A stretch of 33,994 nt of DNA from a virus. Lineage: Duplodnaviria > Heunggongvirae > Uroviricota > Caudoviricetes. Location of the stretch: IMG/VR virus record IMGVR_UViG_2802429241_000004; one strand, 5' to 3'. Below the pieces are notes generated by a model. That model was not told the origin of the DNA and ran no database searches. It worked only from the letters and a program-made list of their open reading frames with translations. Positions 23,919-30,680 of this stretch are shown piece after piece; position 1 is the first letter of the stretch, and every line of letters starts with the position of its first letter. The translations under genes and the position numbers were made by a program.

Positions 23919-24952
23919 TGAGCAAGAAAAAAGGGAAAACACCGCGACCTGCGGCAAAAACAATCACCGCCAGCGCCCCGAAAATGGAGGCATTCACCTT
24001 TGGCGAGCCGGTGCCGGTACTCGACCGCCGTGACATTCTGGATTATGTCGAGTGCATCAGTAACGGCAGATGGTATGAGCCACCGGTCAGCTTTACCGGT
24101 CTGGCAAAAAGCCTGCGTGCTGCCGTGCATCACAGCTCACCGATTTACGTCAAACGTAATATTCTGGCCTCGACATTTATCCCGCATCCGTGGCTTTCCC
24201 AGCAGGATTTCAGCCGCTTTGTGCTGGATTTTCTGGTGTTCGGTAATGCGTTTCTGGAAAAGCGTTACAGCACCACCGGTAAGGTCATCAGACTGGAAAC
24301 CTCACCGGCAAAATATACCCGCCGTGGCGTGGAGGAGGATGTTTACTGGTGGGTGCCGTCCTTCAACGAGCCGACAGCCTTCACGCCCGGCTCCGTGTTT
24401 CACCTGCTGGAGCCGGATATTAATCAGGAGCTGTACGGCCTGCCGGAATATCTCAGCGCCCTTAACTCTGCCTGGCTGAATGAGTCGGCCACGCTGTTCC
24501 GCCGCAAGTATTACGAAAACGGCGCTCATGCCGGATACATTATGTACGTCACCGATGCCGTGCAGGATCGCAACGATATCGAAATGCTTCGCGAAAACAT
24601 GGTCAAGTCGAAAGGCCGCAACAACTTTAAAAATCTGTTTCTCTATGCCCCACAGGGGAAAGCCGACGGTATTAAAATTATCCCCCTCAGTGAAGTGGCA
24701 ACGAAGGACGATTTTTTTAATATCAAAAAAGCCAGCGCCGCTGACCTGCTGGACGCGCACCGCATCCCCTTTCAGTTGATGGGCGGCAAGCCGGAGAACG
24801 TCGGATCGCTGGGTGATATTGAGAAAGTGGCAAAGGTCTTTGTCCGCAATGAGCTTATCCCGTTACAGGACAGGATTCGGGAAATAAACGACTGGCTCGG
24901 TCAGGAGGTCATCCGCTTTAAAAACTACTCACTGGACACTGACAACGGCTGA
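23918..24952 (+). CDS. Q: portal protein Q
   Basis: 344-aa protein starting MSKKKGKTPRPAAKT, overlapping the P stop (ATGA), last gene before cos. Confidence 0.85.
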   Translation: MSKKKGKTPRPAAKTITASAPKMEAFTFGEPVPVLDRRDILDYVECISNGRWYEPPVSFTGLAKSLRAAVHHSSPIYVKRNILASTFIPHPWLSQQDFSRFVLDFLVFGNAFLEKRYSTTGKVIRLETSPAKYTRRGVEEDVYWWVPSFNEPTAFTPGSVFHLLEPDINQELYGLPEYLSALNSAWLNESATLFRRKYYENGAHAGYIMYVTDAVQDRNDIEMLRENMVKSKGRNNFKNLFLYAPQGKADGIKIIPLSEVATKDDFFNIKKASAADLLDAHRIPFQLMGGKPENVGSLGDIEKVAKVFVRNELIPLQDRIREINDWLGQEVIRFKNYSLDTDNG

Positions 24953-24957
24953 ACATC

Positions 24958-24979
24958 GCCGCCTGCGGGCGGCTTTTTT
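24958..24979 (+). terminator. intrinsic terminator after Q (GCCGCC-tgcg-GGCGGC followed by T6)
   Basis: Perfect GC stem 24958-24973 followed by TTTTTT at 24974-24979, 6 bp after the Q stop. Confidence 0.7.
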
Positions 24980-25121
24980 ACACCCCGTCATCACGCCCTC
25001 ACACGCTCACCTCCACGCAAAACAGCCCGCAGACAAACCAACGCCCCGGCACACAATCTAAACGCCATCACGACGCGCTCAGACGCTGAAAAAATAAAAT
25101 CAGCACCACCGCCAGCGCGCA

Positions 25122-25140
25122 GTGCTTTCCCCGCCTCGCC
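25122..25140. other. cos cohesive-end site (19 nt)
   Basis: GTGCTTTCCCCGCCTCGCC is the reverse complement of the P2 cohesive end as I recall it (GGCGAGGCGGGGAAAGCAC); located just after Q as expected. Confidence 0.6.
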
Positions 25141-25289
25141 CGCCCGCTTCATGAAGCGGTTTGAATGCAGTTGTATACCGACGCAGACTTCCTGCCAGTT
25201 CTAGCTACTCATAACAAAAAAAAACATTACAGATGAATGCAAAATCATGCAACTAATGAAGGCGTACAGGCTAGGTGAGAAAATAAATG

Positions 25290-26090
25290 CTATTTCATCA
25301 GTCCTATAAAAGCTGCTGTCATGCTACCCAATGCACCAATAGCAGCAAATAACGTTGCCCAAAACATGCTTTTTTGGCTACGAATATTCTCATTATATCG
25401 TTGTTCTTCATTATTGAAGTGATTTAACGTATTAATTGCTTTTCCAGTGGGCTTATAACCATCTCGAGTCTTTGAAATGTCCCCACTCTCTACAAGGGAA
25501 TCCAGACATAAGCGAAGTTCTTTTATGAGTCGAGAATAATCATCATGGTAGATCCATAAACGTCCTGCCACATCATTCATAATTAGAGTCTCACTGAATG
25601 GTTTTTCCCCTTGCTGCTCTCGATAAATTCTGACAATTGCAGCCAATACCGTCATTACATCGGTTATCTCCTGCTTGCGTTGTCGATACAAATACTTCTC
25701 ACGACTTAGCTTTTTATTTTGACGATTCGCTATTCTTCTAAATCTAAGCACATTAAAAAAAGATAAGTCGTCCAATGAGTCAAACTTCAATTCATGCGCA
25801 TGATAATAATAAATTCCAGAAAAGGAATTTGATGTAAGTCGTTCTGGTTTAAGAATTGTATCAATATTGAAAGTTTTATTCTGATGATTCCACTTCTTAA
25901 CCTTTATAATTCCGTTTGAATAACTATCAAAAAGATAGTCATTACCCTCGTCATCCTTAATGTAAACGGAATACATATCGTAATGAATGGCACTCTCATA
26001 CATTAAACTAATTTTGCCATTTTCAGGAGTCTTCTTTGACTCAAAAACTTTTAGAAACTTTACAACATCAACTTTATTTTTATACCTCAT
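25290..26090 (-). CDS. hypothetical tail-anchored membrane protein (266 aa, single C-terminal TM helix); candidate effector of the RT system
   Basis: AT-rich ORF directly downstream of the RT gene on the same strand; C-terminus MFWATLFAAIGALGSMTAAFIGLMK is a predicted TM helix; N-terminal domain has no motif I recognise. Confidence 0.6.
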   Translation of the reverse strand: MRYKNKVDVVKFLKVFESKKTPENGKISLMYESAIHYDMYSVYIKDDEGNDYLFDSYSNGIIKVKKWNHQNKTFNIDTILKPERLTSNSFSGIYYYHAHELKFDSLDDLSFFNVLRFRRIANRQNKKLSREKYLYRQRKQEITDVMTVLAAIVRIYREQQGEKPFSETLIMNDVAGRLWIYHDDYSRLIKELRLCLDSLVESGDISKTRDGYKPTGKAINTLNHFNNEEQRYNENIRSQKSMFWATLFAAIGALGSMTAAFIGLMK

Positions 26091-26255
26091 ACATTCAGCC
26101 TTGACTGTAAACCACCATATTAAATTATTGCACTAACGACTCGTACCACTTATTGTTCAACCCAGTCAGAATTGAAAGCAAACTTCTGCACTAACTGGGT
26201 TACCATCATAATATATCGATACTAATAAAATCCGATATCATTATATTTTAGTGTA

Positions 26256-27206
26256 TTAAACCGATGTATTTGCTTTCAACGTCAATACTTTCGATCTGTA
26301 ACGTTTTTCAATAACCCCCATTGAATATAAACGACCAAATAATTTCTTTGCTGTTCTTGTATCTTTAGCTTGTTCTACATCTTTTATTATTTTCCAAAGC
26401 TCTATTTCTCTAGCCATAAGATAATGCTGTTCGTTCCTAACCTTTAAGCTATCCCCAAATACTATAACTCCTGTCACCAGTTTAGGCTTATCCCCAGCAT
26501 ATAATTTCGTTTTAGTTGGATGCATCACGTGTCCATGCTTATTAATAATCTTACGAATCACGCTGCAAAACAATCGATTTACATTATCTCCAGAAAAAGT
26601 AAGATCATCGACATAAACTGTCATTTTCACACGAAACTTCTCACAAAGTTGATTCATTTCATCAAACATTCTGGAATTTGCAAAATATGCTAATGGCATA
26701 CTAATCCGACTACCCGTTGGCAATCGTTCATGACAGGTACATATATGAGATAAAATATCAGCCACATCTGGCGACATTTTCATTATTGAGAAAAAGAAAG
26801 AAAATATCATTTCTCTTGTTGTTGACGGAAAAAAAGATTTAATATCTGTAGTCATCAACTTCTGATGATTGAGATGTGCTTTAGCATTTGTTATGTTAGA
26901 GCAACTTTTTTTACCAGAGTGCAAATACTCTGGCATAGCTATACGCAATAATAAACTCGCAATACGTGTATGCACTACATCTAATTTTTCTAAAGGCTTT
27001 TGTATTTTCCGTATTTTATTTTTTTTAGAAAGCTGTTCAAAAATAGAGTAATTACCCTCATCCCTCTTCAAAGCTGATAGATCATTGATACTAACGCAGA
27101 GCAAGCTAGCCAACTTTTTTTTACTTTTAAGTTTATAAAGTGGCGAATCCGTAATAGGATAAGATTTATTTTTAGTTGAAACCTTCAGTTTAATCCTTTT
27201 TTTCAT
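26256..27206 (-). CDS. retron-type reverse transcriptase (316 aa)
   Basis: RT motifs read directly from the translation: NAKAH (NAxxH), DIKSFFPS, LPTGSRISMPLAYFA (QG..SP block), YVDD catalytic box, LVTGVIV (retron VTG). Block order parallels the Ec86 RT as I recall it. Confidence 0.8.
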   Translation of the reverse strand: MKKRIKLKVSTKNKSYPITDSPLYKLKSKKKLASLLCVSINDLSALKRDEGNYSIFEQLSKKNKIRKIQKPLEKLDVVHTRIASLLLRIAMPEYLHSGKKSCSNITNAKAHLNHQKLMTTDIKSFFPSTTREMIFSFFFSIMKMSPDVADILSHICTCHERLPTGSRISMPLAYFANSRMFDEMNQLCEKFRVKMTVYVDDLTFSGDNVNRLFCSVIRKIINKHGHVMHPTKTKLYAGDKPKLVTGVIVFGDSLKVRNEQHYLMAREIELWKIIKDVEQAKDTRTAKKLFGRLYSMGVIEKRYRSKVLTLKANTSV

Positions 27207-27504
27207 TTCTTTTACTTACCCACTCTAGTATATCCAGAACTTTCCCTGCCAGTTTTAAACGTAAACTTTTGGATAACCGTCCTTGTGTCCCTAATGATTC
27301 TGAAAAAAAGACTAAAGAGGATACTGGCATGTCGAAATGGGAAGCATAACGCTGTAAAATATCAATCGACGGCACCCATAGTCCGCTTTCAATCTCTACT
27401 ATTCTGCTTTTTGGAATACCTAAAGATGATGATAAGTCAACTATTGATTCTTTATGGTATTGCCTTATTAAACGAAGGGCTTTATGCAACATAGGCAACT
27501 CCAT
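27190..27504 (-). CDS. XRE/Cro-type helix-turn-helix protein (104 aa)
   Basis: Classic HTH segment ESIVDLSSSLGIPKSRIVEIESGLWVPSIDILQRYASHFDMP; its stop overlaps the RT start by 17 nt. Confidence 0.65.
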   Translation of the reverse strand: MELPMLHKALRLIRQYHKESIVDLSSSLGIPKSRIVEIESGLWVPSIDILQRYASHFDMPVSSLVFFSESLGTQGRLSKSLRLKLAGKVLDILEWVSKRNEKKD

Positions 27505-27528
27505 CTTGTTGAAACTAGGGAGGACGCA

Positions 27529-27684
27529 TTACTCATCTCCCCCTTCAAAGAAGTCAACTGCGCGAGTGATCCAATAAAGTAGTCTAATAAGCCACTTAAT
27601 TACACCCCAAGCGTTAGGAGTCTTCTTTTTCCGGTTTAACTTGTTTTGCGCCTGCTGTTCGTTGGTTACTTTATCATTTTTCAT
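27529..27684 (-). CDS. small hypothetical protein (51 aa) with amphipathic or hydrophobic core
   Basis: Internal ATG at 27682-27684 preceded by a consensus AAGGAG Shine-Dalgarno with 6-nt spacer; product MKNDKVTNEQQAQNKLNRKKKTPNAWGVIKWLIRLLYWITRAVDFFEGGDE. The 97-aa upstream extension is less likely. Confidence 0.4.
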   Translation of the reverse strand: MKNDKVTNEQQAQNKLNRKKKTPNAWGVIKWLIRLLYWITRAVDFFEGGDE

Positions 27685-27786
27685 GACCTGCTCCTTATGT
27701 CCACGGTGTGCAAACGATATGTCTGCTCCAACACCATGGCTCGCCCTCATAAGGATGAGATTGAACAGCACCAGCTCCCTGCTCCA

Positions 27787-27813
27787 CGAACCCTTTGTCG
27801 CCCAAAGGGTTCG
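27787..27813 (-). other. stable hairpin (11-bp perfect stem CGAACCCTTTG / CAAAGGGTTCG, 5-nt loop) within a locally GC-richer structured segment; possible ncRNA element
   Basis: Perfect inverted repeat read directly from the sequence; no flanking T-tract on either strand, so it is not a simple terminator. Confidence 0.35.
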
Positions 27814-28126
27814 AATACCCATACGCTATACCGCTTGAATCAGAGACTCCTGTCGCTGACAGAGGCGTTGCGCGGGGTAAATGTTAGAAAGCATTAGCTT
27901 TCCACGGGCAATAAATACCCAATTGATGGCGATTTATCTCACTAACTAACCAATGATTGAATCATACCAAGTAAACCGTTGTATTTGATCTCTCCTTATA
28001 TAATTTTTTGTTATTAATCAATATAAATAAATAACAAAAAGAAATATAGCTAATTTTCATCCGTCTCATCACAATAAATATCAACAAATCAAGAATATCG
28101 TTTGATTATCTAGTCTTTCCAATTCA

Positions 28127-30415
28127 TTAAAATAAAAACAATGCTTCATCTTCAATTCCCGGCCAAACATCAGCAACCGGATACATGAATTTTTTCCCGT
28201 CATAATTTACGGTCGCGCCACGCGCCAGCGCCTCAAGCTCCCATCGCTGAGGGCTGATACCGTTCTGAGCAAGGTCAACGCGGATACGGGTAATTTGCAT
28301 TCGTTCCGACCTGGTCAGCCTGGCTGATGGCGCTATTTCATGCGGTTTTAACGGGCTTCCGTCTCTTTGCTGACGGTTTGGTGTTCTCAGTCCGTGTTTT
28401 AATGCACCCCTGAGCGCCCTCACGACCTCCGGGTCACTCCATTCGATGACACCGTCATCAACCAGATTAAGCACTGCTGCGGCGTGTTCAGAAGGCGTGG
28501 GAGCCGGTGACGAAGTATCACCACCGGTGAGCTTTCCACAGTTATTGACAGGACTCCGAGGCGCGGCGATGCCGCTTTTTAAAGTCAAAGGCTCAACGAC
28601 CGGAACTTTCGGCACAATGCGCCAGTCCGTCGTTCTGGTGATATGAATATGACGCGCGCCGAGATGCGGCGCGTAAATGCCGACCACTCTCTCGACTTCT
28701 TCCTCGTACTCGTTCACGTCATCCGACGGGCTACGGGCGACCCTGACAGTCTGACAATCGCGCGGGACATTTGCCCCACCCTGCGCGCTGATATACAGCG
28801 CAAAATCGCCACTGTCTGCGGCGGCGCGTGCAGCCTCCACGCGTTCGTCAAATTCATCAGCAATGCTGACGCCGCGAGGCAATTTACGTAGCTCACGGTA
28901 AGCTCCCATTGTCGGCAGGCCAACCGTTTTAAATTGCGGGATGCGCCACGTTGACGCCCATGCGGTAACAGCCGCCGCAGTATCTTTCAGCGGTCTGCCG
29001 GTATCGTTATCGAGCTGACCATCCAGTGCATAGCCGTCGATATTTTTTGAAATGTATTTCGCGATATATCCCGCAGCACCGCCCCGGTTAAGGTGTTTTG
29101 CCTGAAAACGGTTTCGCGCGGCTCCTCTTTCGTCGCCATCCTCTTTGAGCGCATAGCGACGCATGATTTCGATAATCTGGTTACGCTGGCGTGGATTACA
29201 AAAAAGCATCATATGCCAGTGCGGCGTTCCGTCGTGGTGTGGCTCGACGACTCGCAAACCGTAGACCTGTAAATCATTATCCTTGAATGCCGTGCGCATC
29301 AGGCTCCAGATACGGCAGAGATAACGCTGCGCATCCTTTGGATTAAATGCCTCATCATTCCAGCCGTGATTAAGCTGGACGGTTTTATTTTCGCCTTTTC
29401 CAACCTGACGTGTCGGGTGATACTTTGACGGCGCGGTAAGAGTGATAAACATCCCCACATCACCCTCTGAGGCGGCGTAACGCTCAATACCGGCAATGGT
29501 GTTCATCAGCTCCATCCGGCGAATTTCAGGATTAGAAATACTGCCCATCACCTTACTGATAAGGTCGATGCGCTCGCCGGTTTCCCTGTTTTCAAGGTCA
29601 CACGATTTAAGAAACTCCAGATTTGCCTGGCGGCGCGCACGCACATCACGAATGGCATGTTTACTGGCATAAGGAGAACGGTCTTTATTGACCTCCCCGA
29701 CAGCAATCAGTAACGCCTCATGCCAGCGCATACGCTGGCCTTTAAGCTGATGAGTCCACCACTCATCGTTAAACAGACGGGCAATGGCAGAATATGCCTG
29801 CCTCGTGGTTATCTGTCCTTTACGGTATTTTTTCCAGTAGAGCGGGGAAATATTGAAAGCACGTGCAGCGCCAGCAACATGACCATAGAGGTGAGCCTGC
29901 GCCTCATCCGTAAACAGCGATTCTTTTTCGCCATGCGCATCCACCCAGGCATCGCTGAGTTCCTCATACATCATGAAAAGCTGCGATGAGATACGGGCGG
30001 CAAACTTTTTCAGCTCCTTGTCATTCATTCCCGGCAGGCGCGCATACTGGTCGCGCTCTGCCAGAAACAGCAACGACGCGTCGGTGTTCATTTCATGGCG
30101 CTGATTCACGCGCTCAATGCGCGGCCATAAACGACGCTGAAAAGTGGATGTGAGGAAATAAAACCCGTGCACCGGGCTTTTATTGCGCCGGATGTAGTCA
30201 TAGCGTGAAGTAAACAGCGAACGCAAAAAGTAAGGCAGGCGGTTAATCGTGGATAAAACACCTTGCACCTGACGCATCTCGTCACGTGTAAGGGGTCTTT
30301 CGCGCCCGACGGCCTCGCGTGGCGCGTTCCATGCATAAGCACCGGTAAACGTCTTACCGGTGCCTGCGGCAAATGCTGACGGAGGGACAAAATGCCCGGA
30401 GGCTTTAACGGCCAT
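28127..30415 (-). CDS. A: replication initiation protein A (rolling-circle nickase)
   Basis: Large protein matching P2 gpA in size and position; preferred start MAVKASGHFVPP at 30413-30415 (alternative upstream start 30457). Confidence 0.85.
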   Translation of the reverse strand: MAVKASGHFVPPSAFAAGTGKTFTGAYAWNAPREAVGRERPLTRDEMRQVQGVLSTINRLPYFLRSLFTSRYDYIRRNKSPVHGFYFLTSTFQRRLWPRIERVNQRHEMNTDASLLFLAERDQYARLPGMNDKELKKFAARISSQLFMMYEELSDAWVDAHGEKESLFTDEAQAHLYGHVAGAARAFNISPLYWKKYRKGQITTRQAYSAIARLFNDEWWTHQLKGQRMRWHEALLIAVGEVNKDRSPYASKHAIRDVRARRQANLEFLKSCDLENRETGERIDLISKVMGSISNPEIRRMELMNTIAGIERYAASEGDVGMFITLTAPSKYHPTRQVGKGENKTVQLNHGWNDEAFNPKDAQRYLCRIWSLMRTAFKDNDLQVYGLRVVEPHHDGTPHWHMMLFCNPRQRNQIIEIMRRYALKEDGDERGAARNRFQAKHLNRGGAAGYIAKYISKNIDGYALDGQLDNDTGRPLKDTAAAVTAWASTWRIPQFKTVGLPTMGAYRELRKLPRGVSIADEFDERVEAARAAADSGDFALYISAQGGANVPRDCQTVRVARSPSDDVNEYEEEVERVVGIYAPHLGARHIHITRTTDWRIVPKVPVVEPLTLKSGIAAPRSPVNNCGKLTGGDTSSPAPTPSEHAAAVLNLVDDGVIEWSDPEVVRALRGALKHGLRTPNRQQRDGSPLKPHEIAPSARLTRSERMQITRIRVDLAQNGISPQRWELEALARGATVNYDGKKFMYPVADVWPGIEDEALFLF

Positions 30416-30680
30416 GTGAGCCAAAAGCCTCTGAACAACGCTTGCTGAGTTGCTCAACCTGAGCGTTTAAATCAGCAAAAGATTTTGCGTTTCCGGTCAG
30501 AATATCGTGATGCATCATGCCGGAAACGAGCTGGCTTAATTTCGGGTAATAACCAACCACCGCCAGCCATTCCTGACCGGCGTTTTTACCGCTTTCCGCT
30601 CTTTTTTTCTCGTGGAGAATAAACTGAAAGCTGTCACTGGTAACGACATAACGTTCGCCAATTTCGATACGAATACTCAT
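30405..30680 (-). CDS. P2 orf83-like hypothetical protein (91 aa)
   Basis: Small ORF immediately upstream of A in the early operon. Confidence 0.6.
   Translation of the reverse strand: MSIRIEIGERYVVTSDSFQFILHEKKRAESGKNAGQEWLAVVGYYPKLSQLVSGMMHHDILTGNAKSFADLNAQVEQLSKRCSEAFGSHGR

Follow-up and report, generated by a model that had tools for sequence, protein, structure and literature searches.

The DNA studied here, IMG/VR record IMGVR_UViG_2802429241_000004, is a stretch of 33,994 nucleotides from a virus of the class Caudoviricetes and is referred to below, at its full length, as the window. Between its cos site and its replication gene A the window carries an AT-rich island with a reverse transcriptase (RT) gene, and we find that the minus-strand segment from about 26256 to 28030 is probably a complete Type VI retron of the Retron-Vpa2 RNA and small protein (SP) sub-lineage, with the 266-aa gene downstream of it a separate cassette. 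The assignment is carried by the identities of the genes and their synteny, an RNA structure with covariation, homology to a Vpa2-like locus and the finding that the 266-aa gene is separable from the rest. Type VI retrons have the architecture ncRNA(msr-msd)-SP-HTH-RT, that is, a non-coding RNA, SP, a helix-turn-helix (HTH) protein and the RT (10.1101/2025.10.22.683967; 10.64898/2026.04.27.721009), and the window holds an RT of the corresponding group (clade 3) with the RT signatures, an HTH gene and an SP gene upstream of it. A sequence-only reading of the same DNA had described four open reading frames (ORFs) as one operon of a retron- or Abi-type anti-phage system; the four ORFs are indeed intact on the minus strand where it had placed them. 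It overlooked the hybrid RNA, upstream of and overlapping the 51-aa ORF, which contains msr and msd and is an essential part of the system.

Genes and hybrid RNA of the retron

The 316-aa product of the gene at 26256..27206 (minus strand) is a Type VI retron RT. It matched Pfam RVT_1 above the gathering score (33.1 bits against 29.6), as expected from the earlier call of an RT, and matched the PADLOC model RT_VI over the full length of the profile (2.4e-106, 353 bits, positions 1-278 of 279). The sequence-only reading had named PADLOC and RT-family hidden Markov models (HMMs) as a check, and matches to both RT_VI and, for the neighbouring protein, HTH_VI (2.5e-31) were found. The second-best PADLOC model was RT_III-A (151 bits, 7.2e-45), and the top 25 PADLOC matches were retron RT models throughout, Abi and DRT models being absent from the list; the best NCBIfam matches were retron families and the sequence matches in the PDB were all retron RTs. 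The protein carries NAKAH at residue 107, YVDD at 198-201 and VTG at 244, and NAxxH, YxDD and a downstream VTG are signatures of retron RTs.

The gene upstream of the RT encodes the Type VI retron Cro/C1-type HTH protein (27190..27492, minus strand, 100 aa from the ATG at 27492), for which the HTH_VI match was accompanied by a weak match to Pfam HTH_3 (21.7 bits against a cut-off of 23). Its longest ORF (27190-27504) has 104 aa, and the second ATG, at 27492 rather than 27504, is the more likely start because it is preceded by GGAG 6 nt upstream, was chosen by PGAP and agrees with the alignment of homologues. The N-terminus thus defined, MLHKALRLIRQYH, aligns with MIHRALRLIRQYH of the Vpa2-like locus, with R7 conserved. 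The 3' end overlaps the start of the RT gene by 17 nt (27190-27206), just as the sequence-only reading had noted. In the classification of Mestre et al. (2020) the Type VI partner is an HTH protein of the Cro/C1 type with 91-110 aa (cluster 2_1), whose gene lies immediately upstream of the RT gene or overlaps it, and the 100-104 aa and the 17-nt overlap found here agree with this description. PGAP labels the parts of the retron only as 'reverse transcriptase family protein', 'helix-turn-helix' and 'hypothetical protein'.

The 51-aa ORF at 27529..27684 (minus strand; MKNDKVTNEQQAQNKLNRKKKTPNAWGVIKWLIRLLYWITRAVDFFEGGDE) is the conserved SP of Type VI retrons and its predicted toxic effector. The Shine-Dalgarno (SD) sequence attributed to it earlier was confirmed as AAGGAG 7 nt before the ATG. 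We sampled about 40 Type VI loci, taken from phage records, from E. coli genomes and from a scan with one genome for each species, in which contigs were searched with a profile from a 7-sequence RT alignment, a single-RT query having given no match. Nearly all of these loci have a 47-55-aa ORF with an SD just upstream of the HTH gene, and the SP ORFs have in common a polar N-terminus, a K/R cluster, a W-rich amphipathic helix and an acidic tail. The SP of the window matched phrog_15287 (1.1e-34), a family of unknown function, and had no match in Pfam, NCBIfam or PADLOC. As it falls outside the 75-79-aa clusters cl2075, cl2760 and cl3272, it was grouped with the heterogeneous 'Large' lineage that holds Vpa2.

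The SP reading frame is an internal start of a 97-aa ORF (27529-27822). We rejected this longer ORF as a real gene, its N-terminal part overlying conserved RNA, lying in another frame in the Klebsiella phage and not being conserved. Like this ORF, phrog_5826 (97 aa) and the annotation of P2_2H1 are over-extended calls of the 51-aa SP gene; the first 46 codons of the 97-aa ORF lie over conserved non-coding RNA.

The link to Vpa2 was made through a Vibrio parahaemolyticus locus (L054) that encodes a 55-aa SP with K15, I39, F43 and F45 and an HTH protein with R7. It is almost certainly Vpa2, since precisely these residues were chosen for mutation in the Vpa2 preprint. Its RT is 53% identical to the RT of the window, the conserved blocks of its RNA can all be aligned with those of the window RNA, and the window retains R7 in the HTH protein (from 27492) and K15, I39 and F45 in SP. 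Nearly all loci with an RT identity of at least 53%, L054 included, have four RNA motifs whose distances from the HTH start are fixed; in the more distant Type VI loci of the sample, that of Yersinia for instance, these motifs were absent. As RNA, SP, HTH and RT are all homologous to the Vpa2-matching locus, the retron effector is most likely SP, by analogy, rather than the 266-aa membrane protein.

The hybrid RNA (hyRNA), of about 490 nt (27505..27990, minus strand, ends approximate), consists of an msr/msd-like 5' domain, the SP coding sequence (CDS) and a 3' inverted-repeat arm. Its 5' end was placed at the onset of conservation, directly after a TATA-rich stretch, and the segment 27990-27505 folds with a minimum free energy (MFE) of -165.7 kcal/mol (z = -4.74 against shuffles). 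Among four close relatives the non-coding part is better conserved than the SP CDS, except for a segment with an 18-nt insertion. We aligned ten sequences, among them E. coli, a Klebsiella phage, Acerihabitans, an Enterobacteriaceae metagenome-assembled genome, two Vibrio and two Xenorhabdus, and obtained an RNAalifold consensus of 75 pairs, 26 of them with compensatory changes as against 13.8±2.3 in shuffles (0/500 reached the observed count). Paired cells amounted to 96.2%, compared with 88.0% in shuffles, and the observed alignment stood above all 500 shuffles on all five measures. Sliding the partners by 1-3 columns, as a control, gave 3-9 compensatory pairs.

The msr/msd-like domain (27816..27921, minus strand) was delimited within a fold of 27935-27815 (-41.9 kcal/mol, z = -3.66). 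It opens with two msr-like hairpins on the same strand, H1 (27921-27905), the stem of which covaries at 4/6 pairs, and H2 (27903-27886), in which GGAAAG...CUUUCU is invariant. The next hairpin (27879-27816, minus strand, about 64 nt) is closed by a conserved CCC/GGG and varies in length, with indels of 18 to more than 50 nt in relatives; given this position and variability we infer, by analogy with Vpa2, that it is the candidate msd, the putative template for reverse transcription. Hairpin H3, CGAACCCUUUG-GGCGA-CAAAGGGUUCG (27787..27813, minus strand), has a covarying stem with three pairs changed on both sides, and its GGGCGAC loop is present in all but two aligned relatives, one sequence having C for the first G and the Vpa2-like locus the variant GGGACGAA.

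The non-coding domain and the SP message are tied together by long-range helices, all on the minus strand. The 5' arm UGGAGCAGGGAG (27775..27786) pairs with the 3' arm CUCCCUAGUUUCA (27510..27522), which lies between the SP stop and the SD of the HTH gene; this helix has 12 pairs, 94% of cells paired and 2 pairs with compensatory changes. In 17 loci whose RT identity is at least 53%, the motif CCCU.GUUUC precedes the HTH start by 21-38 nt, the exceptions being L037 and L064. The SP SD region CAUAAGGA (27692..27699) is predicted to be sequestered by the anti-SD segment UCCUUAUG (27748..27755) in a helix of 7 pairs with 100% of cells paired and 3 pairs changed on both sides. Inside the SP CDS, GAACAGCA at codons E9-Q10-Q11 (27653..27660) pairs with UGCUGUUC at 27770-27763, and the adjoining GGCGCA (27652-27647) pairs with UGCGUC after the stop (27528-27523), again with 100% of cells paired in both helices and with 2 and 4 compensatory pairs, respectively. 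The features of a Vpa2-type hyRNA are thus found in the window: an msr/msd-like domain contiguous with the SP CDS, an SD held in a stem and a 3' arm that pairs back. Another pairing of the MFE structure, between CGGUUUACUUG at the 5' end and CAAGUUAAACCG in the SP CDS, was discarded, as it is not kept in the Klebsiella and O157 relatives. An Rfam search of 24500-28700 at permissive E-values gave chance-level matches only and no retron msr family.

Upstream of the RNA, 27995..28030 (minus strand) is the probable promoter region and the upstream edge of the mobile retron module. Homology to E. coli O157:H7 ends at about 28030, and conservation among four loci starts just after TATA(T/A)A.

The hotspot and the downstream 266-aa gene

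The retron lies in a cargo island. The sequence-only reading had seen about 3 kb of AT-rich DNA between cos and the stop of gene A (28127), and the GC profile bears this out, with values of 0.31-0.38 across 25200-27400 and 0.35-0.46 up to 28200 between flanks of 0.55-0.59, the island measuring about 2.9 kb. The P2-type cos with its 19-nt cohesive end (25122..25140, minus strand) is the landmark of the hotspot and lies outside the retron; GGCGAGGCGGGGAAAGCAC, which we take to be the P2 cos sequence, matches exactly at 25140..25122 and is present in the window in a single copy. The P2-family backbone homology extends about 40 nt beyond cos and ends at about 25180; therefore the cargo begins there and not at cos itself. 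E. coli 65COLEC (L001) has a 100%-identical island, flanked by portal and terminase genes on one side and the replication endonuclease gene on the other. The island of the window likewise stands between replication gene A and portal gene Q and adjoins cos, which supports its placement as cargo at the P2 gpA-gpQ (tin/old) hotspot, as proposed earlier. In P2-like phages this hotspot has old and tin in P2 itself and retrons among its listed cargo (Rousset et al. 2022, PMC9122126).

Beside gene A the two prophages differ. A gene for a 'phosphoadenosine phosphosulfate reductase family protein' lies just upstream of gene A in 65COLEC (L001:11278-12285) and is not in the window, where a 91-aa ORF (30405-30680) comes directly after gene A. 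Prophages that differ elsewhere thus have the island in common. A short ORF runs across cos (24991-25152, minus strand; L001:5866-6012) and is labelled 'vacuolating cytotoxin domain-containing protein' (48 aa) by RefSeq. This call, made across the GC-rich cos region, is probably spurious.

The 266-aa protein of unknown function (25290..26090, minus strand) belongs to phrog_7611. AlphaFold2 on the single sequence was unusable (pLDDT 43.9), and with an alignment (pLDDT 82.5) it predicted a β-rich domain at about 38-103, a long helix at 111-138, a winged helix at about 145-214 and a transmembrane (TM)-like helix at about 242-265. The C-terminal TM helix called from the sequence fits this model, the uncharged stretch MFWATLFAAIGALGSMTAAFIGLM lying at the end of a long helix (216-265) that terminates in a hydrophobic anchor. 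We found no match for the protein in Pfam, NCBIfam or PADLOC, none by tblastn in the phage collection, none for its family profile among PDB sequences and none at E <= 1e-3 for its model by Foldseek against the PDB. CRP/PrfA-like fold matches (E ~3e-3, TM ~0.23) were set aside, the resemblance being weak and confined to the order of the domains. At E <= 1e-3 the wider family counts 402 representatives, and it has no Pfam match. One of 42 diverse members matched marginally PADLOC WH_III-A, the winged-helix model of Type III-A retrons, at E = 0.0038, which is near chance for 42 queries.

The distribution of this gene differs from that of the retron. A homologue lies beside a retron in 2 of about 14 distinct contexts and without a retron in at least five. 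Related retrons that lack the gene include those of E. coli O157:H7, Klebsiella phage ST147-VIM1phi7.1, P2_2H1, two Serratia loci, Dickeya, Vibrio loci including the Vpa2-like one, and Yersinia, Shewanella and Pasteurella phages. In the Serratia prophage L057 the retron is the sole cargo of the hotspot, and the megablast match of the O157:H7 copies covers 26266-28030 of the window only. Conversely, a 266-aa homologue follows a 243-aa protein (phrog_3403), with no retron, in Enterobacter, Cronobacter and E. coli IHE3034 and APEC O78, and in an E. coli locus (L047) it stands alone after gene A at the same cos-proximal position. The gene occurs in 16/5426 complete E. coli genomes, ten of these having the arrangement of the window. 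Its habitual slot is thus the cos-proximal end of the P2/186 hotspot, where it is found alone, with phrog_3403 or beside a Type VI retron.

The gene also keeps an upstream element of its own. About 70 nt at 26131..26200 (minus strand), some 40-110 nt 5' of the gene, form a hairpin ACCCAGU...ACUGGGU around GCUUUCA, followed by TTGAACAA-N-CGAG-N-CGTTAGT, and are common to the window, Enterobacter, Cronobacter and E. coli L047. The neighbours upstream of the element differ, being the 243-aa gene in Enterobacter and Cronobacter and gene A in L047. The stem changes between the window and Enterobacter appear compensatory. A sigma-70 scan gave no convincing promoter for the 266-aa gene.

The second retron neighbour is in Acerihabitans arboris (L014:2168-5162), in which a Type VI retron with 74% RT and 66% SP identity is followed, 460 nt on, by a 37%-identical 266-aa homologue. 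This locus lies between virB8/virB9-like and virB6-like genes of a type IV secretion system cluster and not in a P2 prophage, and in view of these neighbours its context is a conjugative element. Two mobile elements that are unrelated to each other thus have a member of the 266-aa family beside a Type VI retron, and the Acerihabitans pairing looks like an independent juxtaposition rather than co-inheritance.

Because it is mostly absent beside related retrons, present without a retron and equipped with its own upstream element, we read the 266-aa gene as a separate cargo cassette and not as a retron component. It is conceivable, at rather low probability, that its product is an undescribed anti-phage or superinfection-exclusion protein, and in the retron context the two may cooperate, for instance with the 266-aa protein as a second, membrane-tethered DNA-binding layer.

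The two-gene arrangement phrog_3403-phrog_7611 itself recurs, with no retron, at the cos-proximal end in E. coli IHE3034 (L051:3999-5624), L052, Enterobacter (L003:5138-6801), Cronobacter (L007:5151-6798) and L044:2823-4448, and may be an undescribed cargo system. In E. coli P0022-type loci a terminator made of a GC-hairpin and a T-run separates the 243-aa and 266-aa genes. The 243-aa partner had no Pfam or PADLOC match and no detectable sequence similarity to the RT or to a metagenomic 210-aa neighbour.

Mechanism and rival explanations

Two Type VI retrons have been characterised in detail. In Retron-Vpa2 of V. parahaemolyticus a hybrid RNA of about 470 nt holds msr-msd and the SP CDS (Zhang et al., bioRxiv 10.1101/2025.10.22.683967). 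There, SP is a toxin with a sequestered ribosome-binding site, HTH and RT bind the RNA, and the multicopy single-stranded DNA (msDNA) builds up only when lambda Red Beta and Exo act as trigger, upon which translation of SP is derepressed (10.1101/2025.10.22.683967). Both Vpa2 and Eco12 defend against lambda-vir (10.1101/2025.10.22.683967). In Retron-Sen3 of Salmonella, ssDNA and SP are made constitutively, with HTH as an antitoxin that acts post-translationally and inhibition of RecBCD as the trigger (Garcia-Rodriguez et al., bioRxiv 10.64898/2026.04.27.721009), HTH being associated with the RT (10.64898/2026.04.27.721009).

For the retron of the window the Vpa2 mechanism is the best-supported model, by analogy, given the homology of all four parts and the covarying fold that sequesters the SD; msDNA synthesis, the trigger, the toxicity of SP and the role of HTH would then be as in the published relatives. 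A promoter near 28000 would give the hybrid RNA of about 490 nt, with two msr-like hairpins and the variable msd-like hairpin in the 5' half and the SP mRNA in the 3' half. In the resting lysogen the SD of SP would be paired with the upstream anti-SD and SP codons 9-13 with another upstream segment, and the 13-nt arm after the stop would pair back to the non-coding domain, leaving SP poorly translated. HTH and RT would be made from their overlapping frames and, by homology, bind the hybrid RNA, with HTH restraining reverse transcription, SP or both. A superinfecting phage that expresses recombination or RecBCD-inhibiting functions, such as lambda Red, would be the trigger; msDNA copied from the msd hairpin may then accumulate and open the RNA, so that SP is made. 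SP, with its basic N-terminal half and aromatic amphipathic C-terminal helix, would arrest the cell, abort the infection and protect the lysogen population.

Several points weigh against this picture. The catalytic motif in the Vpa2 preprint is YADD (mutated from YADD to YAAA) and the RT of L054 (2501-3460) reads YVDD, which would mean that YADD is a generic label in the preprint or that another allele was tested. The covariation comes from ten sequences, four of them closely related, and the alignment used for it is also the one from which the structure was predicted. A sigma-70 scan found no clear consensus for a retron promoter near 27995-28030, and in the window RNA the msd is a candidate only, with neither an a1/a2 priming stem nor a branching G made out. 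The locus is known from its sequence alone, its function being carried over from relatives, and the characterised Type VI retrons differ between msDNA-derepressed control in Vpa2 and constitutive expression in Sen3, so the retron of the window could follow either or a mix of the two.

Control of the Sen3 kind is accordingly the main rival: SP and ssDNA would be constitutive, HTH would act as antitoxin, and inhibition of RecBCD would free SP with the ssDNA level unchanged. Sen3 is enterobacterial, has the same SP-HTH-RT order and an RNA that embeds the SP CDS, and HTH and SP are both well conserved in the window and its relatives. The window retron also occupies the slot that in P2 belongs to old, a gene for lambda exclusion with a link to RecBCD status. 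We nevertheless consider this mode unlikely, as Sen3 is a member of the cl2075 lineage and its SP has 79 aa, with an N-terminal extension, compared with 51 aa here; the Vpa2-like locus has all four RNA motifs of the window, which the more distant Type VI loci of the sample lack, and an SD in a covarying helix fits translational control. An RT of the Abi-P2 or DRT-type defence kind, making DNA untemplated or from another template, would also suit the place, because RTs at this variable locus of P2-like coliphages have historically been Abi-P2, which is said to have been first reported at this P2 locus by Odegrip and co-workers in 2006, and a weak NCBIfam match to Drt3a was obtained (23.8 bits against a cut-off of 200). 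The strong matches are all to retron models, and the NAxxH and VTG motifs and a retron-type ncRNA are present; going by the HMM results we regard this identity as excluded. Hence, of the retron- or Abi-type system proposed by the sequence-only reading, the retron part stands and the Abi part falls.

That reading had further joined the 266-aa gene to the other three in one operon and had taken an RT plus a membrane protein as the defining architecture, in which the membrane protein would be the effector or an obligatory accessory of the RT, in the manner of the 2TM protein of Type IV retrons or an Abi partner. The gene is on the same strand 165 nt past the RT stop, with no terminator- or promoter-like site detected in between; the arrangement is at least 98% conserved in ten E. 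coli genomes, there is the second co-occurrence in Acerihabitans, and one distant family member gave the weak WH_III-A match described above. A four-gene unit nevertheless seems distinctly improbable to us. The gene is missing from about 12 other related retron contexts (O157:H7, Klebsiella, Serratia, Dickeya, Vibrio and the phages) and occurs without a retron, paired with the 243-aa gene or alone in L047, keeping its upstream element in these differing contexts. The 37% identity of the Acerihabitans homologue, as against 66-74% for the retron proteins, argues against co-inheritance, and Vpa2 defends without such a gene (10.1101/2025.10.22.683967). The canonical Type VI unit is ncRNA-SP-HTH-RT and the effector of its characterised relatives is the small protein, and neither the operon nor the architecture is supported.

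Significance and comparison with known systems

Publications already describe the Type VI architecture and the presence of retrons at this hotspot, and potentially new is the neighbouring 266-aa gene only, a reasonable candidate for defence screens. The main value of the locus lies in annotation and in the choice of experimental material, and it will be no surprise to the specialist. It offers a native E. coli copy of a complete Vpa2-lineage Type VI retron in its natural host, the PGAP labels of which are generic. As Type VI retrons were characterised only in 2025-2026, with two differing control mechanisms reported, a P2-borne E. coli copy with a compact RNA and mapped SD/anti-SD and long-range helices would be convenient for testing the mechanism in its natural host and prophage. 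Besides, the slot of the P2 lambda-exclusion genes old and tin is taken here by a system with relatives that sense recombination by phages or the inhibition of RecBCD.

Type VI retrons were also met outside this hotspot. Distant SP-HTH-RT retrons lie between tail-completion gene S and baseplate gene V in the peduovirus Yersinia phage vB_YenM_56.17 (L011:2001-3421) and among the morphogenesis genes of the Mu-like Shewanella phage MuM16-1 (L012:2016-3451), positions from which it follows that Type VI retrons are phage cargo beyond the cos hotspot. In Dickeya (L062:3022-7951) a retron with 64% RT identity adjoins a QatABCD-like system (KAP NTPase, QatB, QueC-like, TatD), its context being a chromosomal defence island and not a prophage hotspot.

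Of the known systems, Vpa2 is the closest in design. Both loci have the order hyRNA(msr-msd + SP CDS)-HTH-RT, with an SP of 55 aa in Vpa2 and 51 aa in the window, K15, I39 and F45 in both SPs and R7 in both HTH proteins; their RNAs can be aligned, and both have a sequestered SD and a 3' arm that returns to the non-coding domain, in the window according to the predicted fold. They differ in the candidate msd hairpin, which at about 64 nt is shorter in the window than in Vpa2, and in setting, the Vpa2-like locus L054 being on a Vibrio chromosomal island next to rpoD and the window retron, known so far as sequence, in a P2-like prophage of E. coli. Eco12, an E. coli Type VI retron phylogenetically related to Vpa2, has no detectable msDNA at rest (10.1101/2025.10.22.683967). 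Its likeness to the window, and to the 82%-identical O157:H7 relative of the window, is drawn from its published description only and not from a sequence comparison.

Sen3 has in common with the window the SP-HTH-RT order and an RNA that embeds the SP CDS, and differs in the length and lineage of SP given above and in its constitutive ssDNA and SP under a post-translational antitoxin, whereas the RNA motifs of the window are those of the Vpa2 sub-lineage. Type IV retrons (Retron-Eco6/Ec48, an RT with a 2TM membrane effector) have RTs of the sister clade, Types IV, V and VI together forming clade 3. The window RT is assigned by PADLOC to RT_VI, and the 266-aa protein is built of a winged helix and one C-terminal helix and not of 2TM; unlike a Type IV effector, it matches no PADLOC retron effector model and is not co-conserved with the RT. 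Finally, P2 old and tin and the island of the window occupy the same genomic slot and have the same presumed role, the protection of the lysogen against other phages, yet the OLD nuclease and Tin are unrelated in protein and mechanism to the system of RT, RNA and small toxin that appears to take their place here.

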